A DNA stretch of 52,560 nucleotides, filler included, from Jimgerdemannia flammicorona (lineage: Eukaryota), in NCBI GenBank assembly GCA_003990765.1. It is 2 parts of 2 records of this genome, joined end to end, with 100 filler letters (N's around TTAATTAATTAA, not from the genome) between each part and the next. Parts side by side here need not be neighbours in the genome. Positions count along the whole stretch, not along the records: positions 1 to 26,230 come from RBNJ01000748.1; 1 more part is not named here. One strand, 5' to 3'. How positions within the stretch are numbered: the stretch's first letter is position 1; each line of letters starts with the position of its first letter. The translations under genes and the position numbers were made by a program. Shown piece by piece: positions 3,823 through 45,553 of the stretch. The notes under the pieces are model-generated. The model worked only from the letters and a program-made list of their open reading frames with translations, was not told where the DNA came from and did no database searches.

Positions 3823-4393
3823 TTAAATTAAGTTAAAATAGAGATAGATTTTTGTATAACAATAGAGGCTTAGTCTGTTATAATTATTCTGAAATCTGTC
3901 TTTTATATATATAGTTAATACTCCCAATGAATTGAATTGAGTCAAATTTGACCTCAATTCGATTTGATTCGAAATATTCAAGGGCCAATTCGATTCGATT
4001 CGATTCGAATCAAGGTTCCAATTCGATGTGATCAAATCAAATCAAAGGTCCAATTCAATTTGAAGTTTGATTCAAACCTTAATTTTTCAAAATTCATCAA
4101 CTCAACGAAAACATGTCCAAAATTGATGAATTTTAGCTTGTTAGATTTGCCTTATTCAGGCGAATCCAACACAATAAAGAATATCAAATTTGGACATGTT
4201 TTCATCAAGTTATTGCATTTTGAAGTTTAGGTAGTACTCCTAATGAATCAAAATTCGATTTGAACAAATCGAATCAAATTAATTTGATTCAAACTTGAAT
4301 GGATTGAATCGAATCAATTCGATTTAAATCTAAATAGTAGTAATTCACACATATGGTTTAACATACAACAACACTCTCTCAAAGTAATCAAGT

Positions 4394-7015
4394 ATGTCTG
4401 ATACACTTTTGACACCACTATCTATAGAGGATACTATGGTAACAGCTTCAGTGTCAGATACAAGTATAGCTACAACAAGTGTAGTCTCATCACAGGTCTC
4501 ATCATGGTCTGAGAAAGGAAAAGAATACTCTGACATTTGGAAGGAGTTTACAAAGGAGTATATGGAAAAAGGAAATGTTCAAATCAAATGTAACCACTGT
4601 AGAGCATCATATAAAGCTATTGATAGTTCAATAACAAATTTGTGGACACATTTTAATAAGTATCATAAGAGTTATCAAGGAGGAGGAGGGATAGAGTTAT
4701 TTTTTTCGCAAGTATGTTTTTTATATAACTTGTCTTTTTTTTTTTTTTTTTTTTTTTTTTTGTTATTGTTATTAATTTATTATTACTTTATAATATTCAA
4801 AAATAGCCAAAATTCTCCATGCCATTATTTTGAGAAAAGCTTGTTTGCTGGATTATCAGTAATAGTCAACCTTTTATAGTTATTGAGAATTCGGAGTTGA
4901 AAGATGTTTTTTCCCTTTTAAAACTAGACATTATTATGCCTTCTACTGGAACTATATGAAATGAAATTAAACTGGCCTTTCAACAGAAGCGTGATACTAT
5001 CAAAATTATGCTATAGGTAAGATCTAATATTTTGATGTTAAATATTAATTCAAGTATTCAAATTAATCTTATTGAATTTGAAAATAGAATATACGAGATC
5101 AAATATCCTTCACTGTTGATACACGGACATCTCTAAATATGCATACATTTCTTGGAATTAATACACACTAGATCTGTCAGAATTGGCAACTCAACTATAT
5201 GCTGATTGATTTTGTCAAGCTATCAGGATCTCATTCAGGTGAAAATATTACTGATGCCTTTGGAAAATGTGTTCGAGATTTTGACATACAGACAAAGGTA
5301 CATAGATCATATTTTGAAAAGGTCAAAAAAAAAAAAAAATTCAGGATGGTTGGGATTTTCAAAAAGAGTGGGATTTTTGGGATTTTTCAAAAAAGAGCAG
5401 GATTTTTCGAAAAAGGGTGGGATTTTTGAAAAAGGTCAGAATTTTTGAAAAAGGTTGGAATTTTAGAAAACTTATATTTCAAATTATTGATCTTTCACTC
5501 TAGATATTAGCTATAATAACAGACAATACATCCAACAACAACACGTTTTTTCAAGCAATTGGAATAGAGTTTGATACTGGTCTTTATCAGCCAATACAAT
5601 ATGCTTGCTACCTGGCTCATATTATTAATCTGGCTGCTCAGGCCTTTTTAATTTGTATGAAGGCTAATGATGATAGAGAACTAATTTCAAAACTCCAAAT
5701 AAGTATTATTAAGATTCGGTCATCACTACAATGTCTTGATTGATTTAAAGTATAATGTAAAGCTTTTGGAATCAGCAATCTAAAAGAACTTATTCTGGAT
5801 ATTAAGACTCAGTGGAATTTAATATATTTTATGATTAAATGGGCCTTAGAATTATCAGAGGTAAGTTTTATATTATATTATATTATATTATATTATATTA
5901 TAATAATTTATTTATTAATAAATTAATTTTTATTAATAGCCCTTAACTACAACAATTATGGCTGATAAAGATTTGCGAAAATATGCCATTGAAGATAATA
6001 TTTGGCAAATGCTAAAAGATATTATGAAAATTCTAAAAAACTTTCAAAAGGCAATAGATCTTGCAACTAAGCAGAAATATATAACAATTTATATGGCTAT
6101 TCCAATTTACAACTATCTGCTGAATAAGTTGAAGGATGACAAAGATATTCAAATGCCAAAGATGAGAGAGCCGACAGATGAGCCAATGGATATTATTCAT
6201 CAGGCAATAACAGCAGCTATTGATAAGTTGAAAATATATTATTCAATGACAGATGGTCTTTATTATATTGGTACTAGTAAGTAAATATTTTGATAAATCT
6301 ATTTTGAAATTTGCTTGGTGTTAAGACAGTTTCGAAATTTGATCAGTTGGTCACTATGAATCTATTTTTTGGAATGAAAACTAGTTCTCAATCTCAGAAT
6401 TAAACTAGAATATTATTCATCCTATGGTTGGGAAGACATTTGGATTCAAGAGGCTGAAAACACACTTTATATAGTTTATAACAAAAACTATGCCCCTCCA
6501 TCTGGATCAGTTTATTGTACAATTTCCAATGTTGATGTCAATGTTGACGTCAGTATTGATGTCAATGTCAATGTCAATACTGCAATTGAAGATAATAATG
6601 ACATCCTTGCTGAACTAGATGAATATATATTCTATGGTAACAAAAGACAAAAACTGACAACAAATCCTGAGCAGGAGGTAGATGCTTATTTAAAAAGTGA
6701 AATTGTTAAATTTCAATTAGGAGTTGATATATTATCATGGTGGCAAGTGAGTTGGGCCTTCATATTCGAATTTGGTCTATATATTTCCAAAGTCTTTTTC
6801 TAATTAATTCAATTTATTGGGAATATTAGAGCCATAGTGGAGATTTCTGAAATCTAGTGAAAATGGCATGTGACTATTTAGCTATCCCAGCAACAAGTGC
6901 TCCGATTGAGCAGGTTTTTTCAAGTGGTACAGATCTTGTAATATCCAATAGAGGTGCTTTAGACCCTGAAATGATCTGTGAATGTATATGTTTAAAGGTA
7001 TGGCAATCAGTCTAG
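4394..7015 (+). pseudogene. hAT transposase pseudogene with a BED zinc finger, about 7 exons
   Basis: BED finger (IWKEF...CNHC...NLWTHFNKYH); ISFTVDTRTS; LSGSHSGENI; AIITDNTSNN; CYLAHIINL; DIKTQWN (TRWNS-like); C-terminal LAIPATSAPIEQVFSSG. Predicted GT-AG introns 4712-4806, 5017-5087, 5298-5503, 5861-5939, 6277-6384, 6747-6829. Several in-frame stops (CGA->TGA, CAG->TAG, TGG->TAG type). Confidence 0.9.
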
Positions 7016-8225: not shown

Positions 8226-9315
8226 CAGCTGCTGTGGCCAGGCATACTGAGAATGCTTGAATTTATATGTTGGGTGATGGATTGCCATCGGTGGTGATGT
8301 ACAGGAAGAACATGGACATAGTGACACCAGGAATTGTGGTAAGTAGTGGGGGGATGTGCTGGAATCGGCCAGGAATGCTGAATTGTGAATAAATTAGGAT
8401 AGGAATTAGGATGCTTGAATGAATAGTATGAAAATGAATTGTACGGTGGGTGCCGAGAATGCTGAATTGTGAAAATCGATTATAAATAAAAAGATTGATG
8501 ATACAAGATTGATGACGTAAGATTTGAATCGAATCCTCAATTCAATTCGATCGAATCGAATCAGACCCCCAATTCAATTTGACTTTGATTCAATTTGACT
8601 TTGATTCGAATCAAAAAATCCTCAATTCGATTCAACTTCAATCAACTCCAATTCGATTTGATTCAAATTAATTTGATTTGTTTGGGAGCACTATATATAG
8701 TAGAGTTTTGAAGCTATTTTAATTACTCTATAAAATACTTACTTAGCTTAATATTATTAGTATAGATAATAGTAATATTGTAATAAATTAGATCCTTCTA
8801 AATAAAGACAATATTATCTCTGAAATTAAAACTGCTCTCATATTATCTAAAATAAGAAAAATAAAGAGTTTTTTTTTTTTTTTTTTTATAAACACTAGAC
8901 CCCTTATTAACTAATCTATAATAAACATATAGTTCTCATATCATACTGATAGTTACAACCCAACTTTACTCTACTCTACCCCAATATACTCTTTTTTCTC
9001 TACCCTCTCTTTCTTAAAAACTATCAGATCATTAACTATCTCAATCTACCTACTACTTCTCTTATATATCTCTTCTATTAAATATCTATAGTGACTCTTT
9101 TGGGGGTTCTACCCTCTATCAGCCTGATAGAACATCTATTATTAATCTCTTCTACTTCACTATTCTTTCTTTCAAAACTATCTATCTCTTATTCTTAAAT
9201 ACATATTATTGATATAATCTACCAACCACTCTCTTAAGTTATCCCATCTCTCTCCCTCTCTACTATCTTGCTGTCATACCTTTAGATAATCCAACTATTA
9301 CTCAGAAGTCATTAA

Positions 9316-9733
9316 TAGTACTCTCAATAAATTGAATTAAACTGAATTTGATCCAAATTTGATTTGATCAAATCAAATCAAAGGTCTAATTCAATTTGAT
9401 TTAAATTGAATTAAAGGTTAATTCAATTGAATCAAATTAAAGACTAATTTAATTTAAGGTCTGATTCAAATCCTATTTTTCAAAATATAATAACTTGACA
9501 AATATATATCCAAATTCAATAATCTTTAGCTTATTAAATTCCTCTTATATAGGGAAATCTAATAAGCTAAAGATTATTGAATTTTGATATATATATATTA
9601 GTTAAGTTATTACATTTCAAAAAATAGGATTTGAATTGGACTCTTAATTCAGTTTGAATTCAATTTAATTCAAATTGAAAAATCTCCAATTTGATTTAAT
9701 TTGAATTGATTTTTGATTTATTTAAGAGTACTA
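9316..9733. mobile_element. Non-autonomous hAT derivative (MITE), 418 bp
   Basis: TIRs tagtactctcaa / ttaagagtacta; TSD gtcattaa (9308-9315) / gttattaa (9734-9741); subterminal arrays; central palindrome of ~170 bp. Confidence 0.9.
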
Positions 9734-10349
9734 GTTATTAAGTATCTTATACTCTCTTAATCAATATTCTAATATCAATATAATTCTCTTCTTCTATCTA
9801 ATATTATAACAATCCTTATACTCAAAAACTTCTTCTTCTGTCAAGTGTTCTGATCTAAAGTTCAATATAATATTTCTCCTTAAGATATATTACCATACTA
9901 CTCAGAACCTTGGAGAAAGCTACTACTATATCTCAGTACTCTAAGACCAGACTCTAGCTCAGTCTTATATCTTACTAATGTCTATCAACTACTAGTTTAT
10001 TGACCACAGATCCTGTCCCACCCCCTATTGATACTTAATGTCAGTACTAATGTCAAAGTTCATCACTGGTAAACTACCCAATAGAAGTCTGTAAGTACAC
10101 AATCTCTAAGTCACCAAAATTACACATGATCTCCAAACAAATCTGGAAATCACCTGTAAGATTATGAAGCTAAGTTAAACCAAAATCATAGTACACAAAG
10201 CTAAGTTAACTCAAAGTCACAGAATATAAGAATTACACAAATAGAGTCTAACCAATCAAGACTAAATGTATATATACCAAGTACTGAGATATGTTGAAAC
10301 AGAGAACCACAATAAACCAAACAAACAACCCCAACTCCTATATACAAAC

Positions 10350-11447
10350 ATGACCACTGAGATCTATAACTATATCTATACTGATATTTGAAATACTATT
10401 GTCAACTGAGCTATACCCCCTCTGCCCCTTATGAATATCCATAGCCTAGCACTCCTCTACTTTATAGAAGCCTGATGGAATACCCTGAACATGCTTAGCA
10501 AAGCCCACCAAATTGGACAAATCTCAAGCTACTACCAGATTGGCTACTTCCTAGAAGACATGGTCAAATACTACTATGATATGGATATTACTCAGATATC
10601 TCAATACCAGAAACTCATTGCCTGCAAATATCAAGAACTCTTCTATGAGTATAGCACTGTTATTCTCCACCTTTGAGTTACTACTGTCAAAATAGTTACT
10701 ACTCTATCCTATGGCCAAATTGACAATATGATACAAGAACTCAACTACAAGTATATTGAGTATATTCAAACTACAGACAGAACCTTTCCACACTCTGATG
10801 ACCATATTTTGTAAATGCCTCAAGTTAGATATGCCATAAAGGATGTCTATAATATAATCTGGTTTGACAAAGATAAAGCAGAAGATAATGATTTCTCTGA
10901 TACTAATATAACCCCCAGCTAAGAATCTCTACCAACCCTGATCATCTCACCAATCTTATCAATAAACTTACAATAGTTCATAACCATCTATGAGATTTAT
11001 TAGGATAATGACCACTGGTATAAATACTTGCCTGCATTTACCCCTAATTACTTTAACTATAATGAAAAGACTGGAGAATATAATCTATATCTCCAGACAA
11101 CTCTTGAGATTAAACCAATGACTCTACTATCTGAGTATAAGCAATATGAACCACAGCCACCAGTTTACTACAATTCAGCAACTTATAGCACTATAACTTA
11201 TAAAAGATATACAGATAGTGAATCTGACAAAAGTGAAGATAATACACCCCTCTTTTGCCCACCAACTCTATACCCAGCATATGAGGTAGATGATGCTATT
11301 CTGTAAAATAGTAATGAGGTTTCAATATATTACTATATGAGTAAACAAGGAGAAGTAATCTGAGAAGTACTCTTTATAGATGACTACTTCATCAGAGATA
11401 ATATCATCAATAGTGATATTATTAAAGAATACTCAAATAGCATCTAA
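10350..11447 (+). pseudogene. LTR-internal ORF (~365 codons, stop-interrupted), unknown protein
   Basis: One frame from ATG 10350 (MTTEIYN...) to TAA 11445-11447. It contains ORF-track pieces 10491-10676 and 11028-11306 in the same frame. Several internal stops are sense codons in copy B. Confidence 0.75.
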
Positions 11448-11640
11448 ACCTATAGATAGCTTAATAGTCATAGTATAGTTAGATTAACCTTATATGATGT
11501 AACTGTGAACTAACTCAGCAGTCAGACAATCTTTTGATACATATGTCAGATCACACTTATACTACATGACTGCATTCTGACTCAGCAAGATACTAAGTAC
11601 TATATCTATATTTAGCATAGTCTAGATAGCCCCTCACTAG

Positions 11641-11652
11641 TATAAATACCCC
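11641..11652 (+). promoter_or_regulatory. Putative LTR TATA box
   Basis: TATAAATACCCC, conserved in copy B (12482-12493, minus strand); a similar motif occurs in the other LTR family (32711-32720, minus strand). Confidence 0.55.
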
Positions 11653-12005
11653 CTCCTCCAGACCTCAGAATCTTAGACTTAAATAATCTGAATAACTTCT
11701 GAGCACTTCCCCACAATACCCCTTCATATAGACTACTTCTAGTATAGCAATATCATAAATAGTGAATAAACTTATTTAATAACCTATAAACTACTCTTAA
11801 GTAAATCTGCTCTCCATTAGGTCCCACTTCTAACCCCATCATGAAATTTCCTAATTGGGTATTGTCTGCAGTAATACACTAATTCAACTAAGCTAGCCTT
11901 AGTTTCTTGAACTTCCTGAAATACAGAAAATTCTGAACATTCAGAACTAGTCTGAAAAAAGGACTTTGGTTGAGATGTCAACTCAATCTTGAAATCAATA
12001 AGTAT

Positions 12006-14068
12006 TATAAGAGGGTTACTTTTTAGGGTAATCGTTATGTAGTTCTGGAAAGGTTTTCTGGATATTCTGGATGTTCTGGAAGACCATTTTCTTATGGTCA
12101 AGATCAATTTCATATGGAGTACATCCTCTATGCTTATTGATTTCAAGATCAGGTTGACGTCTCAACCAAAGTCCTTTTTTGGACTAGTTCTGGATATTCA
12201 GGATTTTTTGTATTTCAGGAAGTTCAAGAAACTAAGACCAGCTTAGTTGAATTGGTGTATCGCTGCAGACAATACCCAATTAGGAAATTTCGTGACAGGG
12301 TTAGGAGTAGGACCTAACGGGAAGTGGATTTACTTAAGGGTGGTTTGAGGGTTATTTAAATAGGTTTAATTGCTATTCATGATATTGCTATACTAGGAGT
12401 AGTTGTATGAAGGGATATTGTAGGGAAGTATTCAGGAATGTTCTAGTGTATTTGAGTCTGAGATTCTGAGGTCTGGGAGAGGGGGTATTTATACTAGTGA
12501 GGGGCTATCTGGACTATGCTAGATATGGATATAGTACTAAGTGCCTTGCTGAGTCGGAATGCAGTCATATAGTACAAGTGTGATCTGATATGTCAAGAGA
12601 TCGTCTGACTGCTGAGTCAGTTCATAGTCATGTTGTACAAGGCTAATCTAACTATACTATGACTACTAGGCTATTTATGGGTTTAGGTGCTATCTGGGTA
12701 GTCCTCGATGACATCACCATCAATTGTATCATCTCTGATGAAGTAGTCATCTAGGAAGAGTGGTTCGCAGATTACTTCTCCTTATTCGCTGAGGTAATAA
12801 TACATTAGAACTTCATCACCATCCCACAGGATAGCATCATCTGTCTCGTAGGCTAGATAAGGTGTTGGTGGACGAAGGATGGGTGTATTGTCTTCACTTT
12901 CATTGGATTCACTGTCTGCATACCTTCTATAGGTTACAGCACTATGAGTTGCAGAATTGTAGTAAGCTGGCAGCTGTGGTTCATGTCACTCATACTCAGA
13001 TGGTAGAGTGGTTGGTTCAATCTCGAGGGTTGTCTGGAGGTACAGGTTGTGTTCTCCAGTCTCTTCATTGTAGTTGAAGTAATTGGGGGTGAATGCAGGT
13101 TGGTATTCATACCAGTGGTCATTGTCTCAATAAGTCTCATATGTAGTTATAAACTATTGTAAGTTCATTGGCAAGGTTGGCGGAGTGATCAGGGTTGGCA
13201 GAGATCCTTGGCTAGAGGTCATGTCAGTGTCAGAGGGATCATTGTCTTCTGCTTTGTCTTCATCGAAGTAGATTATATCGTAGATGTCCTTCATGGTGTA
13301 TCCAACTTGGGGCATTTGCAGGATATGATCATTGGGGTGTGGGAAGGTTCTAACTGTAGTTTTGACATACTCAAGGTACTTCTGGTTGAGTTCTTGTATC
13401 ATGTCATCGATTTGGCCATAGGACAGAGTAGCAACCATTTTACTGGTAGTAACTCGGAGGCAGGGAATAATGGTGCTGTACTCATAGAAGAGTTCTCGAT
13501 GTTTGTGGGCAATGAGCTTCTGGTGTTGATACATCTGAGTAATGTCTGTATCATAGTGGTGTTCGACCATGTCTTCCAGGAGGCGGCCGATCTGGTAGTA
13601 GCTTGAGATTTGTCCGATTCAGTGGGCCTCGCTAAGTATGTTCAGGGCATTCCATTGGGCTTCCACAAAGTAGAGGGGTACTAGACTATGGATATTCATG
13701 AGGGGCAGAGGGGGTGTGGCTCGGTTGACAATGGCATTCCAAATGTCAGCATGGATATGGTTATAGATCTCAGTGGTCATGTTTGTGTATTTGGAAGTTG
13801 TAGTTGTTGTTTGTTTTGGTTCTCTGATTTGATGCATCTTGATACTTGGTATATATGTATTTGATCCTGATTGATAAGATTCTGTTTGTATGAATCTTGT
13901 GTTCTGTGACTTCGTATTGACTCAGCTTTGTGCGCTGTAACTTCGGTTTGACTCAGCTTTGTGATCAAGCAGATGATTTCTAGATTTGTTCAGAGGTCAT
14001 GTGTGATTTCAGTGGCTTGTTCAGAGGGTGATGTGTAATTTCGGTGGCTTAGAGGTTGTGCACTTACA
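12006..14068 (-). mobile_element. Solo LTR copy B (2063 bp), inserted in inverted orientation into copy A
   Basis: Minus strand starts TGTAAG (14068) and ends CTTATA (12006; CTTACA with one C->T). 5-bp TSD agtat at 12001-12005 and 14069-14073. Homologous to copy A throughout and less mutated. Confidence 0.9.
12683..13780 (-). pseudogene. LTR-internal ORF in copy B (stops and small indels)
   Basis: MTTEIYNHIHADIWNAIVNRATPPLPL...YYQIGRLLEDMVEHHYDTDITQMYQHQKLIAHKHRELFYEYSTIIPCLRVTTSKMVATLSYGQIDDMI...; includes ORF-track 13619-13837 and 13154-13570. Confidence 0.75.
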
Positions 14069-14274
14069 AGTATAGAGGATGTACTCCATATGAAATTGAT
14101 CTTGACCTCAAGGAAACAGTCTTCCAGAATATCCAGAACTTCCAGAAAACTCTTTCAGAACTATATAATGGTTACCCTAATAAGTAATCCTCTTACAAAG
14201 TCTATTCTATCTCTACATTATAGATCTTTATTATATCTCTCTCTTAATATCTTATCAAAGGCTATACTAATGCA

Positions 14275-17200
14275 ACAACTAGTTCCCTAAGCCCAGTCTC
14301 CTCCCATCTTCAAAAACAAATAGCTAGTGACTGGCCAGCCTTACCCAAATTGCCAAAACCCAGTCTAAGGTAAGCCACTCCTTTTCTACCCCCCTAACCA
14401 GTCTATCTCTCAAATCCTCCCACCAACCCCATATGCTATCTCTCCTATATGCTACCCCCAAGCAGTCCCCAATAGTCCACCAAAAGTCACTAAGTACCTC
14501 ACACTCCTCTAGTCAATGTTCAGGCATCTGTATATATCCCCTTTCTTATCTAATATTGTAATACTCCTCACAGTCAAAGCAATCTCCCTTGATAAGGTGA
14601 CCCAAGCAGAAGTTGAGCATGATATTCCTTCTCAGTATGTACTACCAGACCACTCAGTACTTTAGTAGCATCCCACCTTAGCACTCTAGGTCCACACACT
14701 ATACCAGTCTCACTCTTCTCCAATATCCACTCTCTGCTATCTGCTAGACCACAGATCCTGGCCTTGTCTTCTTTGGCAATCTATCTGATCACTAATGTTA
14801 AATTCAATCAAGAGAACACCTTCCAGCAATACTCTGTTCCACCTCTACATTGCTAGGTCCCAAGCTGCCTCTTCTTCATTATCCTGCCAATGAATTCCAA
14901 TACAGTGCACCCCCTCTACATCTCTCCACCAGAAGTCTTTGTATCACAATTGTGCAGTATTCCAAAGCCCAACCAATGATAAGAGATCTTCTATTAAGCC
15001 TCTTGGTGAGGACTTCATCTCTCAGACCTTCTGCAACAGGGAGACCCAACTACCCCTGCTTAGCTCCACTGCTCTCTTTAATCACCATACTCTCAAGCAG
15101 TATAGTCTTCTCAAAAAGTCAACCAGCCCAAGCCCTCCTCTTTCCACTAGTAAAGATAAGACCTCCCAACTGATCTGACTCCTTCTTTTAGCTCAGATCC
15201 ACCCCTTGGCCAGCTTCATCAATCACTTCACTACCCAGACTGGGAAGTCTAAATAGTAAGCCAGATACCACAACTTTAGTAGCCAATAGACATTCAAAAT
15301 TGAGACATGCTCTGCTAGAGACAAGTGGCAACCCCCCCAGCTCTGCAGGGCCTCCCCCCAGATTCCAACCCTCTACTCCCACCAAAGTCTAGGTAGTACT
15401 GACCCATATACTGACAAATAAATACTCAAGTACCACACTACCTTACCAGTAGGGATGATGGTTCTGATAACATCTTCTCCTACCAGACTATTATCCAATA
15501 CCATTGTTTCACACTTGTGCCAATTGAGTTTAGCTTCAGAGTTCTCCTCATACCACTTCACTGTCTTCTTGAGCTCCTCAACATCAACAATAGACCTCAG
15601 GCTGACCACTATATCATCAGCAAAGGCCCCAACTTTCTACCCAATTCTAAGGACAGAGAGCCTCACTATCTTCCTCCTGATTCTATCTATTAGGGGCTCC
15701 AGGGAAAGGGCATATAGAATGGGGGACAGTGGGTCCCCCTGGGGCACACCCCTATCTAGGAGAAATAATACCTCTCTATGTCCATTACATATGAGCACAG
15801 CCCTACTCTCTTCCAGTAGGCTGATCATTGCTGACTAGAACTGGAGCAGTACCCCAGTCCTATCCAATACTTTCACTAGCCAGACTCTCCACACCTAGTC
15901 ATAAGCCTTCTCCTGGTCCAGGAAGACCAGTTGCCCATCCAGTCCACAAGCTTATGCCTCTTCAATAACTCTATGTATCCAGGCTGTGCCATCTCTAATG
16001 AACCAGCCTTCTACAAAGCCCCTCTGCTCAACACCCAAGACTTGCTGGGCCACCTTCTGTAGTCTCACAACCACTACCTTAGTCACCAATTTTCTGTCCA
16101 TATCTAGCAGTATAATTAGCTACCAGTTCTTCCAGTTCTCTTGCCTCCCTTTGTTCTTGTAAAGCAATGTTATCAGCCACAGATCCTGCTTCCCCACCCA
16201 CCTCTCTGTCTGTAATATAAAGTCACACAATGCTGCTATCTCACTCAGTACTCCTGGGACCTCCACCATCTTCTTCCAGAAGTCCCAGGGCAGACCATCC
16301 TCTCTAGGTGCTGTACCCAAGATTATTGTGGCAAGAACCTAGTAGATCTTTTTCTCTTGTACCAGTAACACCAAATCACTCAACCCATTCACTCATAGAG
16401 GGTACCAATCCTCCAATACCTAGTCAATGGCAGCAGCATCTGCCCCACCCTCCTTCTCACTCCACAATCTACTCTATCACTCCTTTAATGAACCAAGAAT
16501 GTCTTGTATACCATGCACCAGTATACTATCAGAGTTAAGCACCCCCTCCCATCTTTGCTATATCCTTCTTATCTGAAGGGCCCTTAAGAGATACTTAGAG
16601 GGCCTCTCCCCTTCCTCCAAATCTTATCAATGAAGCTGTGCTGCTAGGCTCTGCACCTTTGTCTCCTTCTCATCCTGCAGCACCTGTTGTAATTCTCCAA
16701 TCTCTATTTTCGCCCTCATTAACCTCCAATTCTCTCTCCCCTCTACTGTCACTAGCTCTGCCCAATCTTCCAAGAGTCTAGTCAGTCTAACAGAAGCCAT
16801 CTCACCTGTCATCTCCTCTGCTTCCCAGCCTCCCTGCCTGCCTCACTCCAGTAGACCCTGGTCATCTCTTTCATCCTCATCTACTGAATACCAACTGGGG
16901 TACCTTCCTACCTCTAGCTCTCCACCCTCAGTTGAATGTCCTCAGTCCACTCATCTTACCAGATCCTATTATCTAATAAAGAGGAATTGAGGTACCAATG
17001 TCCAGATCTATCCCCACTCCTCCCAAAATGCCCCTGCCCTAACAGCCCCCAATGATCCAACCAAGGACACTATTCAACCTCCAGCAACTTCCAAACATCC
17101 AAACCCCAGCAGCTGGCCATCAACATCCAGTCAATCCTTATCCCCAGGCCTTCTGCTCAGTGTGTATATATCCTTCTATCCCCCCAATACTCCCTACCAG

Positions 17201-19270
17201 TATCTACTAGAGTACTTAGCCTTTCTACATCCTCCTATACCACCAGCCCTCTACTCCTACTCTCAGCTCTCTGGCTGCCATTTGTTCTATCCATCAGTAC
17301 ATTCTGAACTATATTGAAATCTCTACCAAGTATATTCACCCCAGTCTCTACAAGAACCCCACTCTCCTGTAGACCCTTCACCCAATCCATATGCTCACTC
17401 TGTACAGCAGGGCAGTAACAGGAGCCCACTATGACCAGCTCCTAGCCTGTATATATCCACTCTCCCCAGACCAATCTATCCCCCCAGCTCCTCATATTTC
17501 ATATCTCCCCTCTGCTTTTCTAGACCAGAATCCCAACCTTGCCCTTCTAAACCACCTCACCTCTCTATTCCTTCATCTATTCCAACCTATCCAAATCATC
17601 CTCACACCTGATATCCTATAAGAGAAAGACATTGGTCTCCAATTCTTTCAGCCAAGTAAAAGTGTTCCTATATCAAGAAGTGTTTTGTAATCCATTTACA
17701 TTCAAAGAGAAAATATTGGTTATACTATTCAGGTGTATTATCCAGTTCATCCCTACTGCTCCATGTTTATCTCTTCTTATACTAAGTCCAGATTATATTC
17801 TGCAGTCACCTCCTCCTCTTCAGCCCTCTGAGCCTCCAATCCAGCCAATAGCTCATTCATCTCCCCATCTGCCTTCTTCTCAAACTCCTCTTGATACTCT
17901 AGATAGGTCTCCTGCCAGAGCTGCAATCCATAATACTTAGTTCAGCAGTATTTAGCTCTCTCATCAGCAATACCTGTCAGCTCCACCTCCCACTCCTTAT
18001 CTACCTTATACTCTTTCTTCTTCAGATATACTACAAGGATTTCCACCTTCAATGCCAACTCTACCCCATCCCTCTGCAGGATCTATGTCCAATGCTCATC
18101 ACTCATCACTCTCAAGTCTACCTCCCCTAACTCCTCAGCTACTAGGTTATTTATCATCCTACACATCCAAAGTAGGTTTCCCACCTCCTTCCCCCCAGGA
18201 GTCTCTGGCCTCTCTCTCTCCAATATCATGGTGTCAGCCCCAGCACTCACAGACTCATCTCATATCTCTGGAATATCCACTAATTCCTCCTCTTCAACTA
18301 CCACTACTTGTCCCCTATTTGCTATCTCAGGAACTCTAAATTGTACTTGCTGGGCCCTCCACATTGGCACATCCTCTCCCACTCTGCTTTGGGAAATCAG
18401 GCCTCTCCTGATAAGAGAAGTAGGGATAGATGATCTCTCCCAGGCCTCCTCCCAGACCTCAAACATACCATCAGCATATGGGTCATCACTAGTCACTTTT
18501 TTGTCCTCTCCTATCTCCTTTTCTGCACTCCCACCACCCTTGCCAGCCCAGACACTCACTTTGGTACCCCCTGTCTCTACCATTCTACCTGTATCTTTCT
18601 GTAGTCTACTTCACAGCTTAGTCAGCAGCTCCTTCTGACACTTATATCCCTGAGCTCTTTCTCACTATTCCTTGTCTACTCAAATCTACTTCCCATTCAC
18701 TACCTCTAAGTATGTTGACTCCACAAAAGTCTTCCAAGCCTTTGCCTACTACTCCACCACACCACTCAGCTCTTCCAGTGCTTTCAATAAGTCCTTTTCC
18801 TCCTCCTCACTCCCCTTCACTCTCATTATCTTACACAAGATCACCCCCCAGACCATCACCAAAGGCCAGTCCCTTGCCTTCCTGGTAGCTTTCTTTCCTA
18901 CCAGCCAAATCTGCACATCAACATTCTCAGTCTTGAGTGAGATCCCCTCCCAGACTCTGAACCTGATATCCACTACCTTGCTATACTCTACTATGACCTC
19001 CTCGACTCTCCTTCTCATCTCTACCACCATCACTATGGGCACTCCTTTCATCAGCAGTTGTACTATCTTGGGGTCCCATCTCAGGCAATATACCATTGAG
19101 ACACATATCTCCCTAATAGTCAAACCAACCTTCAGTACCTCCTCCAAAGACTCAGTCTCCTCAAAGCCCACCTCTACTCCTTCCAAACTCTTTAGAAACT
19201 TTACTGATGTCACTCCAGCCACCTGCTTAGTGATGAGCCCTAGTACTATTTTCACCATCACTACTATCAA
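14275..19270 (-). mobile_element. L1/Tx1-like non-LTR retrotransposon, degenerate (ORF1 plus APE-RT ORF2)
   Basis: APE motifs (FSLNVNG, GSCYCPA, GRDFN); RT motifs (GTAPREDGLPWDFWKK, RGVPQGDPLSPILY, FADD); C-terminal cysteine motif; ORF1 at ~17750-19270. Many stops. Both boundaries approximate. Confidence 0.9.
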
Positions 19271-23148: not shown

Positions 23149-24201
23149 ATGGGGAGGCGTTCTATGAAATCCATTTTTATCAAGTACCGTCGCCGTGGAT
23201 TCAGCGACGTTTATCCTGACGAGCTGTCTGGCTTCGTATGTACACCCCAAGTTCTCCTTCACAATAGGACATATTCTTTCGGTGGTCACGTCCGAAGCAT
23301 ATGAAACCCGCCCATTGCCCCCAGGTCTTCGGTCGATCTCGCTAGCCAGTCGCTCATCCGTTCACCCCCCCCCCCTTCCTCCCCATCTTGTAGCTCCCCG
23401 AATCCGTCTTCCATACGCGGATCGCAACCCTCAACACCAGACTCAAATGGCGACACCCCAAGTACGGTCTTCCGCTCTACCTCCTTGGGATTATGGTGTT
23501 CTTTATCGTATGCGGTGCCGTCTTCGTCTTTGTGGGGCCTTTCGCCACGCAGAACAGGTTGCAATACATGGCAGTCATGGCCGCGTTCGGAGCTAGCTGG
23601 TTTCTCTCTTTGGTGTTCTTTTTGATGTACGTGAGCGTGTCGTCCAAGGTGAGTTTCCTGAATTTGGAGTTTGAAGTTGGGGGAATCACAGATGATAGGA
23701 AACGAGCAACGGGAAGGAAAATAAAAGCAAGCAATTTTACTTAGAGGATTGCCTTGTATTTTGCCATACCTATGAATCTACTTTACTGACACCGTGTATC
23801 GCACGACATACTGAAATTATCTGATGTCGGCCATCACAGTTCAAAAAAATTGGCACCCAACTTTGCGTAGAATTCAATGCGCGCGATACGCTCCAGTATA
23901 ACGTTCGATGGAACCTGGTGCGCAAGCACGTGGACGCGGCAGAGGCGGACGACGAGATTCAGCAGGGTTGGGTACGTTCTACATCAAAGGTTTTATTTTT
24001 TGGTTATTAATTTTCTGCAGTGACGAAAAAATAAAAATAAAATAACAATGCGACACTTTTAAACCACAGTGTGTCGAGATACGCCCAGCGCAGTCCTTAT
24101 CGGGCAATCTTGCTCCCGTCGAAATTATAATAGAGGAAAGCAACGCGAAGGAGAAGGAAAAGCCGATGGAGGAGAGAGGGTTGTTATCGCACGCTGGTTG
24201 A
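23149..24201 (+). CDS. Predicted 201-aa two-transmembrane protein, Erf4/Golgin-A7-like; exons 23149-23235, 23394-23648, 23840-23971, 24070-24201
   Basis: All three introns are GT-AG (donors gtatgt, gtgagt, gtacgt) and phase 0, giving an open frame: MGRRSMKSIFIKYRRRGFSDVYPDELSGF/LPESVFHTRIATLNTRLKWRHPKYGLPLYLLGIMVFFIVCGAVFVFVGPFATQNRLQYMAVMAAFGASWFLSLVFFLMYVSVSSK/FKKIGTQLCVEFNARDTLQYNVRWNLV...GW/CVEI...HAG*. The family call rests on a by-eye pattern (F..YP.EL.G.L....F...I..LN, TM hairpin, EFN...N.RW). Confidence 0.75.
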
Positions 24202-24679
24202 TCGAACCGAGGGTTTCCAGGAGAAGTACGGCGGAGGAAGTAGGGTGTAAATTGCAATAAGAAATGTGAAATGTATAGGGACTGGTCAATACCGAAGGAT
24301 GCGGGTTGCATGTTGTAAATATCGCCACTATTCTTACTCTCCTTTTGTGTCGAAAAATCGTTCGAAGTATATATATACATGCGGTTACGCACATTGAATT
24401 TGTCGTTTTACAGTATGTGAATGTTACATTTGTTGGCCGTCGCTATAATCTATGTTCAATTTACCGACAAACAATACGTTGCACGTTATCATTGGTTCGA
24501 AATACGCACTTAGACGATCACTATCCTGGTTCTTATGCCATGCACTGGTATTCTCACACCTCACGGTTTTATCCAGTCCGGTAAACATTTACCAAATAAA
24601 CGAGCAGATTAGAATAGTATATTTTTATACATATGCAAAACAGGCCACACCCAAAATACTCCTGGTTCGAGATATCCAA

Positions 24680-26180
24680 TCACGCGATGATACCCACGAT
24701 CCGCCGCCACCAACTCATCTTCTCGGGTTCCTCGGGATCAACGGGTACGTCACGATGACGTGTCGCGCCCGTGTCGAAATCGGCCTCGAGCAGAGGTACG
24801 AGGTGGGTTTTCTTGACAAACTTGTAGCCGAAGAAGAGGACAGCGAAGACGACGACGCCGACTGGATAGTAAGTAGGAATGTGGTTTTTCGAATGAGTAC
24901 TTTGGCGTCTTTTATTTCTATTTTTTTTTATTTTTATTTTTGGCGGTTTTAATAACCAGACACAACATCCTCTCGCTACCACGATACCTACTGTAAACAC
25001 CGATGACGCTGACGGCGACGTTGTCGCTCTGCGTAGCGGTCCATCCCTCGCCAGCGAAGATGAAAGTAGCGATGACGATGGCGAAAGTGGGGCCGAAGGG
25101 GTACAAGGCCGCGCGGTACGGTAGGTCTTTGATGTCGCGGCCCTGGGCGCTATACGCCTGACGGAAGCGGATGTGAATAACGGAAATGGACATCCAACTG
25201 AGGAGACCTGAGATGCCGGTTAGATTGATGAGCCAGCTAAGGAAATGAAGGGTGGAGCTGGTAAGGCAAGTGGAAATCGAAGATTGATAGGCTAGATGAT
25301 GAACTTACGTGAACACTTTGCCACCTTTTGTTTATCGCGATGATGCAAAAGAGAAGTGACATACGTATGTTAACATTTAATCCAAAAAAATCTTTCTCCT
25401 TGCAAATTTTTATCAACAACGACCCCTCCGCCATCCCCACACATACCTCCCCACAAAGTCGTTGTGAATGAGATACACGCCACCAACGTCGTCGCGATAA
25501 GACTCCAGAGGGGCACGCCGCGCCGATCGACGTGGGCGAAGATCTTCGGCGCCTTACCCTCCTGGGCCAGCGCCATGAGGGTGCGGCTGGCGGCGTAGAA
25601 ACAGCTGTTGGTCGCGCTGAAGACCGAGGAAAGAATGACTGTGGGAAAAGTAATGTAGAGATATTTGTGAGCGAGGAGAAAAAACGAAGACACGTCTGGG
25701 AACGAGAGTATGTGCGATTTAATCTTACGTACCGGCGTTCATAACGTGGGCGGCCTGCTTGAGATGGGCGATCTAATCATGTGTGTTTTATAAAGCGAAA
25801 TAATGGTCTTCATCAGATATGCGAACATAAAAATAAAATAAAATAAAATAAAAAAAAAATCCCTCAATAATAATAGTAATTAAAGTCCACCTGCAGCACC
25901 AAGGTAAACGGCGCGATGGTGATATCGTTGTTGTTGCTGGCGTTGAGCAAGTTCTCGTTGTTGTACGGAATGACCAGACCGATGACGAGGATGGTGAGGA
26001 TGTAAAAGAGGAAAATACGCCAGAAGGTGTTTTTGACGGCCCTGGAGTATGGAGATAAATTTTCAGAAGTGGTAGGGCCTTTTCTCTCCTCATTCCGTAA
26101 AAATAAAAATCGGGAAAACTATTACTTTGGCACGTTCTTTTCCGGATTCTCGCTCTCCCCGGCAGCAATACCGACGAGTT
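24680..26180 (-). CDS. Amino acid permease (APC superfamily, fungal YAT type), 3' half only; exons 26126-26180, 25891-26041, 25733-25772, 25447-25638, 25309-25324, 24992-25236, 24680-24861
   Basis: The spliced frame is open: ELVGIAAGESENPEKNVPKAVKNTFWRIFLFYILTILVIGLVIPYNNENLL...APFTLVLQ...SATNSCFYAASRTLMALAQEGKAPKIFAHVDRRGVPLWSL...VFTWLINLTGISGLLSWMSISVIHIRFRQAYSAQGRDIKDLPYRA...GYKFVKKTHLVPLLEADFDTG. Canonical splice sites. The 5' exons are lost at the gap. Confidence 0.95.
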
Positions 26181-27719: not shown

Positions 27720-29240
27720 GAGAATACTGGTATAGAGAGACAAGGAGAAACTATGAGAATAGGAAGACTGTTTGGTATAGAAGAAGTAGTAAAGGCCAGA
27801 GTGAGATCCAGTAATAATAGGCTCTTGTTATTACTCAGCAGTTAGGAGTGACTGAGTAGAGTAGCTGGGTGGACTTCATAAGTATGGAATGCTTGCTGAA
27901 ACTGATGTAGATATATTAGATAGAGACTTTAATATAGTGCAGAATGTACTATTAGACAGGACTGATGAAGTGAGGTATACAGTAGGCTATAGTAGCAGTT
28001 TGGATATTTGGTAGGAAGTAGAATATCTAAGTTTATTGGTTGATACTGATAGGATGGTGTGAGGTGATCAGAAGGTTTATACTTATTGGGTAAATAGACT
28101 TAAGAGAATATATTGCCTTAGAACTTGGTGATTGAAGAGAGCTGTTAAGTTATAGAGCAGAGAGTGGGTACCATTAATATAGAAGGTCTGGGAGATAAGG
28201 TTCTTCCCTAGAGATTCTTTGGGAGATTTATTGGTGATAGTTAAACTGAGAAATAATAGGTACTTATAGAACAGAAGATTCTAGTAAGGGGTGGTAGAGA
28301 GAGCTTACTATATTGGTTTCTATTAATATAGTAATAAGAGAGAGATACAATAGAGACCTATAATATAGAGGTGAGATAGGCTTCTGTTGATAGTTTACTT
28401 CTGGTAGACTTTGATATTAGTGTTGGCATATAGAGTATCAATGGAGGGTAGGACAGGATCTGTGGCCAATTGGCTGATAGTCAGTAGGTATTAGTGAGAT
28501 ATAGAACTGGGCTAGAGTCTGGTCTTGGAGTGCTATAGTGTGATATAGACTTTCTCCAAAGTTCTGGATAGTGTGGTGATATATCTTGAGGAGAAACATT
28601 ATATTGAACTTTCAATCTGAATACTTGGTAAAAGGTAGAGTTTTCAAGTATGAGGAGTATTATAATATAGGACAGAAGAAGGAGATTATACAGATACCTG
28701 AATATTGACTATATGAGTATAAGATACTTAGAGACTTTTGAGCAATAGTGAGAAGTTACTTAGGGGTGAAAAGGCAAAATAGTGGAAAGAGAGAAAGATG
28801 AGATAACTTGAGAGAGTAGTTGGTGGGATATATTGGTAATAAGTGGCTCACTATTGAGTAGACATTGATAGTATAGATGAGGTTGACTGGATACTGACTA
28901 TATGTATTTGAAGATAGAAAATAGATGGTTTTGGGGGAAAAGATAGCAAGGTAAAAGAGATTGATAGTGGATGTTCTGTCAAACTGGTAGAAGGGGTGAG
29001 GCTCTCAAGGAGGTTGCTAGTGAAGTCTGGTAGAAGGGATATATGAGAGGAGTAGTGGGCAGATTGAGGTAATTAATGATCTAGTTATTTTTAAGAGAGT
29101 GGAAGGAGAGGAAAGAGAGTGGGTTAAGGTAGGGTAGAGTAGAGTGGGGTTGGGTTGGGGCTACTGGTGTAGTATGAATACTATATATTAGTATAAATTA
29201 GTTAATAAAGAGGTCTAGTGCTCAAATGAAAAAAAAAAAA
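27720..29240 (+). mobile_element. Internally deleted LINE copy with poly(A) tail
   Basis: APE segment (ataggctcttgttattactca, gactttaatatagtgcag) joined near 28100 to the ORF2 C-terminal part (cf. 51600-52560); A-tail at ~29229-29240. Confidence 0.7.
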
Positions 29241-30600
29241 CCTCTTAATTAAAACTCTGCAAGAACTCCTTTAAGTATATAGAAAATAAAAAGAAGAGAA
29301 ACCAGCTAAGGAGTGGAAGAAAGAGAGAAATGAAATCCAAGACCTCAACTTTAAGTTAGACCAATTGGTCAGGCAAATTAAAAAACTCACCACTTATAAA
29401 ATTCAGAGCTACTCACAGGATAACAGAGAATACATACTATAAAGGAACTAAGACTACTCACCCAGAGCCAATAGAAACCATCAGCTACAAGAAGAAAGAA
29501 GATACTCAGTCTGATACAGAGCCTAAGTCCAATGCTTTTACTATAGATAGTTTGGATACTATACTACTGAGTATGATAATAGAAGAAGTGACTGAAGAAA
29601 CTCAGAACAACCAAATTAATATAACTAAGTACAAGAAGACTAAAGCTCACTCTGTTGAAGACTTTGAAGAAGAAAGCAACAGTAAAGACTATAGTAATCT
29701 AAATCTATACCCAATCAAGGTCATTATTAAGAAAACTGTCTACTCAGCTGAGAAAAGAAAGAGATCAGTAAGAAGACCATCCAGAAATACCAGCAGAAGA
29801 ATTATTCAAGTGAAGATGAAGAAAATAAAGAGGAGCAAGTTGAGACACCTTTTAGGTCCTCCTCATCTTTTATCTCTAAAACAAATAAACTACTACCAGA
29901 GAATGAAGAAATAAAGCAAGAAGAATAAGAGTCTATTATTCTAAGCTCAAGAAGAAGTATATCCCAAAGACCATACCCAGAGATATCCATAGAAGTCTGA
30001 CAAAAGATTCAAGAAGCCAAGATGAAAGTCTCTCTCTTATAGTTCTTACAACTGATATCTACTAGGATTTGAAACAAACTATTGAGAACTACTAGATCCA
30101 GCATTGGTAGAATCTCAATCTCATAATAAGAATTACCACCAACTACTATTCATACTGCAGAAAGATATATCAGCATATATCTATATAGAGGTATTGGAGG
30201 ACAGAAGGTGAAAATCCTCATTGATACAGGAGTAGCTATCTGTATCATTGTCAAACAATTCCTAGATACCCTCCAGTGGCCCATTTATGGACCATCTAAC
30301 CTCAGCATTATAGTAGCAGATGGAGACTGAACTCAACCTCTTGGAGAAGTATATAACATCACTATCTCTCTTGGACACATTCAGTTTTCTATTCTAAAAG
30401 CTATTGTCACTAAAGTAATTATCTATAACATTATTCTTTATACCAACTAGATGAAGGAAATAAATAAGATTATTGATATTGGTAAACAGGTGCTCAAATT
30501 CGACTATAGAGAAAAGAAGTACAGAATCAAGATGACTAGCTATAAGTAATTAAAGAAAAAAAAGAAGGTCATTATTTAGAAAGAGTATGTTAGTAGTGAA

Positions 30601-32273: not shown

Positions 32274-32978
32274 AAGAAAGAAGTGTATCTCCTCCAGATC
32301 AACTACTTCAAAAAGAATGCTTCTCAATAAATATACTGTCAACTAGTAAAACTATATAAGAACCTCATCCTAGAACTAGAAGAGCAGATCATTTTCAAAA
32401 TCTTCACACTATCTGATTTTAGAAATCTCTTCTTTGAATCTAATGAGGATATCAAGAACCTAGATATAGAAGATATTATCATGTAGTAGTCACTGAGTCC
32501 ATCAAATATATCAGATTCTCTTCAAGGTATATCTCTTAGACTAACTCAAGTTTGTTATAAGCAAGTTCTTATTGGAGTACCTTCCTAAGGTCTTATAGTT
32601 CTCAAACTTCTTATCTTTTAAACTGTCTTGTTATCTCTTTAGATTGCTTGTAAGGAATTGTGTATATTGTACTAAGAGGAACTGACTTTATTTCAAAGGA
32701 AATAAGAGAGGTATTTATACAAAATATAATTCAATAGTTGCTAAGATATAAGGCTAAATATAAATTCCAATAACCAAATAAAATGCTGGAATATAGAAAA
32801 CTACCAAGTTTCAGTGTCAGCACAGATAGTTGTATAGATTCAGGATGTTGGTATAATTTCAGTAATATAGGAAAAGGGTGCTGGAATAATTCTGAGTTAC
32901 ACAAGATCAGAATGTCAGTGGAGGAATAGCTGTTATATAGAAAAAGAATGCTGGCATAATTCAGTATAACTAAGGGAC

Positions 32979-33492
32979 TTAGAGCAGAATGTTCAGAACC
33001 ATGAGTACTTTATCTTCATCAGAGATCAGAATGTCTTCAAAGAAGATGAGATCAGTTTCATCACATATTTCACATATATTACATGGGATGACATCATTGC
33101 CAATAATGTCATCACATTTGGCAGTGGCAGGGAGAGTGAGGAGATCTGGGGCTCTCCAGTCTATGAGGTTCTCTTCCATGAAATAAGGAACAAATATGAG
33201 GTCTTGGAGAGATCTAATCTAGATGCTGGGGCCTTGGAATGCAGAGATCAATTCTTGTAGGAATTGATCTGGGTTGTCCTGGAAGATGGAATACCAGAAC
33301 TCTTCTACCTTATTACTATCAAGAGTGATAGTGGACTGGGCTTCTGTTGTCACTCTGGCTTCTAGTACATTGATATAGCAGACTGATAGATCTCTAAAGT
33401 CTGTGACTCTAGTATACTCCAAGTTGGGGATTGACTATGATATATGTCTGAAGATCTGATGAATCTTCTTAGCTGTCCTTGTTTTACATATA

Positions 33493-33574
<82 letters not shown>

Positions 33575-39500: not shown

Positions 39501-39624
39501 GGTTGAGGCTAGGAGTCCTTCTTATATAGGTCCTTATGGCTCTTCTGATGTCTTAGAACATTCTTTCTTTGACTGAGAGGCCTTGGTAATTCCTTGATCT
39601 TGAGGTTTGGTAAGCAGCAGGCAT
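32979..39624 (-). pseudogene. LTR-internal ORF of element B (~270 codons; 39624-39316 joined to 33479-32979)
   Basis: One frame across the LINE insertion: MPAAYQTSRSRNYQGLSVKERMF*DIRRAIRTYIRRTPSL...QKYEIGNLLYWEFPQASPQEL*DITLIDIYKT/RTAKKIHQIF...IPNLEYTRVTDFRDLS...VLNILL*. A second copy lies at 46054-46819. Confidence 0.75.
33495..39315 (-). mobile_element. Full-length L1/Tx1-like LINE (degenerate)
   Basis: Poly-T at 33495-33566; 15-bp TSD tgttttacatatatc (33480-33494) / tgttttatatatatc (39316-39330); ORF1 ~37300-39220; ORF2 with APE (FSLNMNG, LLQDV, GGDFN) and RT (GLPWDFWKK, FLDQKKVYDRV, FADD). Confidence 0.95.
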
Positions 39625-40249
39625 TTTATTTATGGTAAGTCTTTGATCTATTTTGGGATTGGTGGGTCTTGTTGAGTTGCTGCTACTGCAGTTCCTTGAT
39701 CCTTCTTTTATATTCCTCAAGATGACTATACTGTAGTTATAATAACTCATAGTTGGTCATCATTACTTATCTTGTAGTCTGGGTGAGTCATGCTATATGA
39801 TCTTCTTATGCTCTGATCTGATAGCTTGTAAGGAATTGCTGTCTCTTGTACTGATGTCATCATTCTGAAATCACTATTACATCTTCCTTCTGAATAAGGA
39901 TCTTCTTAAACATCCTTATTTATTGGTCCAGTTCTGAAAAATTTACTGATCCCATAACCTCTGACAGGGAGTTGAAAAGTAGTATTTATGGCCTGGCATC
40001 TTCTCTATATATTTTGGTATAATAGTAAAGAGTTGCTCCCTTCATATAGAGCAAGGGTCTGATTCTGATCTTGATCAATCAGTTGATGATTTAAACTCCT
40101 CTGGCTTTGAAAATCTTATAGATGAGTAGTTGCTGGTACCATATCTCTTAAAGAATAGTCCAGACAGATTGTCTGCTGGTCATGGGACATGCTGTTATAA
40201 TTCATGGACTAGAACCTTATGGTGGTCATCATATTTTGCTTCTCTTATA

Positions 40250-45490: not shown

Positions 45491-45533
45491 TGTTCATTTT
45501 TCAGCTTAAAAGTGAGGGATTCATCTTGAATCA

Positions 45534-45550
45534 CCAGCCAATGGGCACCA
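45534..45550 (-). other. Candidate tRNA primer-binding site
   Basis: Minus strand TGGTGCCCATTGGCTGG starts 3 nt inside the 5' LTR end (..TGACA); TGG is complementary to tRNA CCA. tRNA identity cannot be assigned given CpG decay. Confidence 0.55.
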
Positions 45551-45553
45551 AGT

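Follow-up and report, generated by a model that had tools for sequence, protein, structure and literature searches.

Putative accessory protein genes within the long terminal repeats of two retrotransposon families in Jimgerdemannia flammicorona

A 52,560-nucleotide stretch of the genome of the fungus Jimgerdemannia flammicorona (assembly GCA_003990765.1), made up of parts of two records joined by 100 filler letters and referred to here as the window, contains two families of long terminal repeat (LTR) retrotransposons. On balance, each of these families appears to carry a complete accessory protein gene in the U3 portion of its LTR, oriented in the sense of the element. Family 1 is known in the window from solo LTRs alone, with no full element of the family within it, and family 2 is represented by a Ty3/Gypsy element with both of its LTRs. 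Retrotransposon LTRs are normally treated as non-coding control regions, and because repeat annotation masks them, genes located inside LTRs go unseen. An original prediction, made from the sequence without database searches, had proposed that a conserved protein is encoded inside the LTRs of both families. Sequence comparison now supports the view that both of the LTR open reading frames (ORFs) are true coding sequences, each having relatives free of interruption. The copies in the window are dead and have been mutated by a process resembling repeat-induced point mutation (RIP).

Results

ORFs inside the LTRs and their intact relatives

The family-2 element occupies positions 32477-46823 on the - strand and consists of direct LTRs around a pol frame. 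Its 5' LTR (45554-46823, - strand) is 1270 bp long with TG..CA ends, and its internal region (39629-45553, - strand) encodes protease, dUTPase, reverse transcriptase (RT), RNase H, and integrase domains in one frame, as identified with Pfam. Because the LTRs flank this single protease-dUTPase-RT-RNase H-integrase frame, the family was assigned to Ty3/Gypsy. The dUTPase domain, at 42671-43381 on the - strand, falls between protease and RT (Pfam E 3.5e-19 on the read-through frame). The 3' LTR is found in two parts, 39331-39628 and 32477-33494 (both - strand). Between them lies a non-LTR retrotransposon resembling a long interspersed nuclear element (LINE), at 33495-39317 on the - strand, with a poly(A) tail of ~35 nt and a 13-bp target duplication at 33482-33494 and 39318-39330. 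With this insertion taken out, the 3' LTR measures 1316 bp, also with TG..CA ends, and the two family-2 LTRs are 86% alike. Another LINE-like element (46834-52413, + strand) abuts the 5' LTR, beginning 10 bases from it.

Both family-2 LTRs contain an ORF of ~270 codons that starts with an ATG at LTR base 5. It has the same sense as pol, just as the original prediction held, the pol domains lying in one frame of the - strand. In the 5' LTR copy (46054-46819, - strand), the frame changes at a 44-nt deletion near 46650. In the 3' LTR copy (39624-39316 plus 33494-32979, - strand), the ORF is split by the LINE-like insertion: the first part of the LTR carries the start at 39624 and codons 1-98, and the second part carries the rest of the ORF (33494-32979), followed by a TATAAATACC box and the LTR end. 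Counted with the insertion removed, the ORF spans bases 5-814 of the 3' LTR. The family-1 ORF is longer, with 365 codons plus a stop in each of the two solo LTRs. It is located at 10350-11447 on the + strand in LTR no. 1 and at 12683-13780 on the - strand in LTR no. 2, corresponding to LTR bases 261-1358 and 289-1386, respectively. Long, stop-interrupted ORFs had been predicted at these positions in family 1 and in both LTRs of family 2, and all of them were found; a copy left behind in solo LTRs, another element of the prediction, is present in both family-1 solo LTRs.

Searches of large protein collections identified stop-free relatives of both ORFs. For family 1, a word-indexed search of 5.8 billion proteins yielded P0008, a protein of 247 aa that is 66% identical, has no stops, and shares the end of the ORF. 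With a family-1 profile, HMMER was run in full against 1.84 billion representatives and returned three matches, two of which are real: P0008 and P0009, the latter being a 128-aa protein that is 88% identical to the ORF of LTR no. 2, with the same start and again no stops. The third match was discarded as a spurious bacterial repeat protein. At the positions where the window copies of family 1 carry stops, the relatives carry Q, W, or R. A family-1 search limited to proteins of 30-69 aa gave no match. In metagenome contigs of the Joint Genome Institute, a protein-pattern scan produced 11 pattern matches, none of them related, and a degenerate 29-mer designed on the best-kept LTR stretch gave one AT-rich chance match (L001) without blastn likeness to the window.

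For family 2, a search with an alignment of the window copies recovered six relatives of 138-271 aa, all of them without stops. One of these, P0014, is full-length (271 aa), and both its start (MPAA...) and its end are the same as those of the window ORF. Both window copies have a stop at codon 24, where the relatives have Q. In five of the six proteins, the C-terminal LN(F/I)LL is kept in frame despite 8 or more differences in length within the acidic region, while the sixth has an unrelated tail, as if frameshifted. These in-frame length changes argue for translation of the ORF or selection on its reading frame.

Relationship between the two LTR proteins

As had been predicted, DNA comparisons between the families were negative, with no likeness found beyond the TATA box; for the LTR DNA that follows the ORF, the real score was equalled or exceeded by 37 and 15 of 300 shuffles. 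At the protein level, the original prediction described a cross-family alignment that included a gapless block of 36 residues. The alignment exists as described, with 11 of the 36 residues identical when counted by hand, but it was not matched by standard search statistics: BLASTP between the families gave nothing significant (best E 0.042, and E 31 for the 36-residue block), and with the HMMER profile of either family, the other family did not outrank shuffled decoys. None of the proteins that the family-1 profile retrieved from the 1.84 billion representatives belongs to family 2, and when the family-1 proteins were searched against the window with tblastn, the family-2 LTRs did not stand out.

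A comparison of the family-1 alignment (4 sequences) with the family-2 alignment (9 sequences) using hhalign returned one collinear match of 113-120 columns, in which residues 7-120 of family 1 align to residues 20-135 of family 2 with an E-value of 0.018. In a rerun, the match scored 23.6, compared with 14.2 +/- 2.3 for column shuffles (maximum 21.5, none of 200 as high) and 15.8 for the reversed alignment. Similarly, the Smith-Waterman score of P0009 against the family-2 3' LTR copy joined across the insertion was 65, with shuffles at 28.7 +/- 4.4 and none of 1000 as high; the maximum in a six-frame scan of the window was 42 among 948 chunks outside family 1. When P0009 was compared with the intact proteins P0014, P0011, and P0012, the scores were 40, 49, and 35, and 27, 5, and 77 of 1000 shuffles, respectively, reached as high. 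The predicted relationship stood out from shuffled controls in hhalign (above 200 of 200) but less so when intact proteins were aligned, and among the profile comparisons it was favored by hhalign but not by HMMER. We regard homology between the families as suggestive and put the chance that their N-terminal ~120 residues are homologous at about even, perhaps a little better in view of the position, sense, and general build that the two ORFs share.

The most serious alternative is that each of the two ORFs was acquired independently from unrelated sequence, has no role for the element, and is slowly decaying, and that the likeness between the two arose by chance. The negative BLASTP and HMMER results are in line with this view, as are the lack of any family-2 protein among the representatives matched by the family-1 profile and the low scores of the two intact proteins that include the relevant region (40 and 49). 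However, both ORFs are open in diverged relatives that show in-frame length changes, both occupy the same place in the LTR in the same sense, and the single collinear hhalign match exceeds every column shuffle. We therefore regard independent acquisition as unlikely.

Position of the ORFs relative to the LTR promoter

In three of the four LTRs, the TATAAATACC box is located 194-250 nt downstream of the ORF end. In LTR no. 1 it lies at 11641-11650 (+ strand; LTR base 1552), 194 nt 3' of the ORF stop; in LTR no. 2 it lies at 12484-12493 (- strand; LTR base 1576); and in the family-2 3' LTR at 32710-32719 (- strand; LTR base ~1065). The fourth LTR, the family-2 5' LTR, has TTTAAATACC at 45785-45794 (- strand), one mismatch away from this motif, so that the predicted order of ORF and motif is seen throughout. 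Taking the box as the LTR promoter, both ORFs would lie wholly within U3, a placement judged by position. Since the ORF is upstream of the LTR TATA box, the 5' LTR copy would fall outside the genomic RNA and the 3' copy would form the 3' end of that RNA.

Contigs from four public runs (X1, X2, X3, and X6) were aligned to 11950-14450 at 80% likeness. In X6, which we guess to be RNA, the depth rises from 11.4 in the bin that holds the box of LTR no. 2 (12454-12537) to 2247 in the next bin downstream, ~30 nt past the box, which is a weak hint in favor of the U3 placement; the depth of X1, X2, and X3 is flat at this point.

Alternatively, transcription could start upstream, such that the ORF lies in R instead of U3 and heads the genomic RNA as its first cistron, similar to the pre-gag ORF of some plant elements. 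Family 1 has features that would suit this arrangement, with tandem repeats and a TATA-like TATATATACC (10269-10278, + strand) positioned within the LTR ~80 nt 5' of the ATG; this TATA-like box is a candidate promoter for the ORF. Very long R regions are also described for Retrosat2 (PMC3485330). Still, with the family-2 ATG at LTR base 5, a promoter could not fit into the LTR ahead of the ORF, a strong TATAAATACC box is found downstream of the ORF in both families, and the X6 depth step, weak as it is, also falls downstream of the box. On these grounds a location in R is improbable, and a U3 location is preferred.

Decay of the window copies

All of the ORF copies in the window contain internal stops: 10 in LTR no. 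1, 5 in LTR no. 2, 7 in the family-2 5' LTR, and 4 in the family-2 3' LTR. Codon 218 is a different stop codon in each family-1 copy, and the two hits must therefore have been independent. The idea that frames of this length are not genes but an effect of the G-poor composition of the ORF strand (17% G) was rejected and has next to no chance of being correct, given that the ORF frame of LTR no. 2 has 5 stops versus 18.1 predicted from base composition, that 16 and 38 are found in the other two sense frames, and that relatives of 128-271 aa are free of stops. LTR no. 1 and LTR no. 2 differ by 314 transitions and 45 transversions. The sites changed between them include 43% of CpA and 68% of CpG, compared with 11-22% for CpT and CpC. 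This mutation pattern is RIP-like, with an excess of C-to-T and G-to-A changes at CpA/TpG in repeated DNA.

Nested arrangement of the family-1 solo LTRs

Comparison of the window with itself revealed an inverted repeat at 10108-14018, which is 80% identical to its own reverse complement. The left arm (~10088-12004) pairs with the right arm (14068-~12115) around an unpaired centre of ~100 bases, and a 131-base piece that runs across the centre (12005-12135) is found again, inverted, at 14068-14198. When checked base by base, the 3.9-kb "palindrome" at 10090-14197 proved to be two family-1 solo LTRs, one inserted backwards inside the other. LTR no. 1 (+ strand, 2040 bp) starts with TGTAAG, extends from 10090 to 12005, where it is interrupted by LTR no. 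2, and continues at 14074-14197 to end with CTTACA. Its target duplication, a perfect one of 5 bp, is AAGTC, located at 10085-10089 and 14198-14202. LTR no. 2 (12006-14068, - strand, 2063 bp) is complete and has the termini TGTAAG...CTTATA, one transition off those of LTR no. 1. Its own target duplication is AGTAT, at 12001-12005 and 14069-14073, and the uninterrupted target site within LTR no. 2 reads AGCAT and is present in a single copy. Two solo LTRs had indeed been predicted here, and in substance this was right, but the coordinates given for them are the limits of the ORFs and not of the LTRs, and the nesting was missed.

Family 1 has two sets of 31-32-bp tandem repeats, with LTR no. 2 having one unit more than LTR no. 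1. In LTR no. 2, repeats at 13897-14050 (- strand) lie in the first 170 bases, 5' of the ORF, where they may have an enhancer-like role. A scan of 9800-14400 against Rfam gave no match. A local palindrome of 325 bases (9388-9712) is located just to the left of LTR no. 1.

Family 1 is abundant in soil metagenome runs. In the soil run X1, 3791 contigs match 11950-14450, 428 of them at 99% or more, and the summed depth, 1009 in the bin that ends at 14217, is 8.7 one bin further on, near the LTR end at 14197. Four contigs of X2 diverge from the window at 14069, the LTR start, and have a purine-rich run, AAGAAGGGGAGAG, directly 5' of the LTR when read in the LTR sense. Three others diverge at 12005/12008, the LTR end, into a primer-binding-like sequence. 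We take the latter to resemble the primer-binding site for initiator tRNA; no tRNA gene was found in the window for comparison. Contigs with the purine tract or the primer-binding-like sequence indicate that full family-1 elements exist elsewhere and that the element sense is the ORF sense. The LTR identity originally predicted is thus borne out by the termini, the target duplications, and the sequences bordering other copies. Separately, record 26 of X6 is a 9.6-kb high-depth contig from another organism that begins in sequence ~81% like the middle of the family-1 ORF (12874-13340); its remaining ~9.2 kb is unlike the LTR.

A foldback or long terminal inverted repeat DNA transposon, or else an assembly artefact, might be suspected from inverted arms that are 80% alike with a short centre, but such an origin of the 10108-14018 repeat is very nearly impossible: the transposon was rejected because there are two separate 5-bp target duplications, the centre and 14069-14197 are exactly accounted for by the split 3' end of one LTR, other copies border the purine tract and primer-binding-like sequence, and arms that are merely 80% alike exclude a recent artefact.

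Other features of the window

In addition to the two LTR families, the window contains three related LINE-like elements, namely the two mentioned above (33495-39317, - strand, and 46834-52413, + strand) and a third at 14300-19261 (- strand). They are ~65% alike and have a very G-rich coding strand, and two of the three have a common 5' end of ~27 bases. Inverted copies of another repeat family are found at 8860-10090 and 28378-29250. An ORF with a BED zinc finger at 4388-4876 (+ strand; Pfam E 8.8e-05) is possibly the remnant of a hAT-type transposase. Across the window, AT-rich blocks (23-31% GC) alternate with blocks of 46-50% GC. Fragments of an amino-acid permease gene lie in a block of 46-47% GC at 23982-26180 (- strand; Pfam E 1.2e-16 for 24921-25304) and are the only host-like gene seen in the window. 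In the ESM Atlas, the 24921-25304 fragment groups with ascomycete clusters, which is a lead only. Judged from this lead, the RIP-like mutation pattern, and the abundance of family 1 in soil runs, the host looked likely to be a soil ascomycete.

Discussion

Nature and possible expression of the LTR proteins

Both LTR proteins are acidic, with a pI of 4.0-4.6 for the full or long forms, and neither has a hydrophobic stretch, the maximum 19-residue hydropathy being below 1.0. Composition and hydropathy therefore agree with the acidic tail and the lack of a transmembrane segment noted in the original prediction. The family-2 protein begins with an arginine-rich segment. In the AlphaFold2 models, which have pLDDT values of 40.7 and 31.5, helices occupy the first ~140-180 residues and there is little order beyond them, so the product is modelled as an acidic protein with a helical front and a disordered rear. 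For P0014, the model in the ESM Atlas has a pLDDT of 0.35, and no look-alike above 0.83 was found there.

A gene in this position would ride in the LTR, because reverse transcription copies U3 from the 3' end of the RNA into both LTRs. Being inside the LTR, it would be present at both ends of the element and would be retained in every solo LTR. In family 2, an ATG at LTR base 5 implies that the copy in the 3' LTR would have to be the source of the protein, possibly through a spliced RNA or through a subgenomic RNA started internally, close to where the internal region ends. As for family 1, its ATG is preceded by 260-288 bases with tandem repeats and a TATA-like box, which could constitute a promoter of the ORF's own inside the LTR. 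Each family-1 LTR, solo copies included, might then function as a small transcription unit. Translation would proceed via a subgenomic RNA.

By analogy with the CERV protein of the Caenorhabditis elegans element Cer1, the LTR proteins might act in the nucleus on the element's own expression, either as transactivators or as helpers of RNA export, although we would offer this role only tentatively. A broader reading, and one that we think still less likely to hold in full, is that fungal Ty3/Gypsy elements have a class of accessory genes that has gone unrecognised, the LTR ORFs, which share an ancient helical N-terminal domain across LTR families that show no likeness in DNA. On this reading, the family-1 gene would be self-contained, with repeats, TATA-like box, ORF, and LTR poly(A) site, and thousands of solo LTRs would still be making a trans-acting factor for the whole family. 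Were this true, the factor from solo LTRs might activate the promoter of the family, export its RNA, or blunt genome defence.

Several observations weigh against the proposal of a U3 accessory gene. All four window copies are broken by stops, a frameshift, or the LINE insertion. Their intact relatives, presumed to lie in LTRs, are short environmental fragments without DNA context, and they form a biased set because ORF callers list open frames only. The flanks of the family-2 element differ over 5 bp, leaving a possible 4-bp ATGT/ATAT pair that is one transition apart. Expression of the LTR ORFs is proposed from sequence, and the X6 depth step, derived from the contigs of one run guessed to be RNA, is not evidence of a start site. 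Finally, neither protein matched Pfam at E-values up to 1 or PDB sequences at E-values up to 10, and in the poor AlphaFold2 models no fold supports any function.

A complete gene in U3, duplicated with every cycle and persisting in solo LTRs, alters the capacities of a solo LTR. Should the protein benefit the element, whether by activation, RNA export, or counter-defence, an env-less fungal element would possess an accessory gene of the retroviral type. In that case, natural variants would be plentiful, intact in soil data and RIP-killed here, for the study of gene birth and death.

Comparison with known systems

A close parallel is found in mouse mammary tumor virus (MMTV), where the whole superantigen ORF, sag, lies in U3, is present in both LTRs in the element sense, and is expressed from the 3' LTR copy. 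The LTR ORFs described here are like sag in that an entire coding ORF would be contained in U3 in the sense of the element. However, Sag, from a vertebrate retrovirus, is a type II membrane glycoprotein, whereas the LTR proteins are without a membrane segment and belong to env-less fungal retrotransposons. Lentiviral nef and foamy-virus bel/bet are 3' accessory genes that reach into U3 and are expressed from spliced RNA. In contrast to the ORFs in the window, which have both start and stop inside the LTR, these genes start in the internal region and just overlap U3, and they have no sequence likeness to the LTR ORFs. No likeness of the LTR proteins to Sag or Nef was detected by Pfam or PDB comparison.

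Outside the retroviruses, many LTR retrotransposons carry 3' ORFs of unknown function, and extra ORFs in the internal region occur in elements of plants, rotifers, and worms. Among these, CERV of Cer1 is a lineage-specific nuclear protein that is produced from a spliced mRNA and is required for export of the genomic RNA (PMC10309623). The LTR proteins are like CERV in being putative lineage-specific accessory proteins without outside homologues that are encoded 3' of pol. They are unlike it in that CERV is encoded in the internal region, partly by gag exons, and not in the LTR. In plants, ORF0 of Retrosat2, RIRE3, and RIRE8 lies between the 5' LTR and gag-pol (PMC3485330) and is thus internal, whereas the ORFs here are inside the LTR. 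Such additional plant ORFs resemble the LTR ORFs in being fast-evolving, family-specific, and of unknown function (PMC3485330, PMC7264820). The plant LTR-retrotransposon review (PMC7264820) contains none of the phrases for an ORF within an LTR that were looked for in it. More generally, full-text searches of an open-access library yielded no paper describing a whole ORF enclosed in an LTR outside the retroviruses. Accessory ORFs of LTR retrotransposons are therefore already known as such; what appears to be new here is an ORF that would lie wholly within U3, and that does so in two families.

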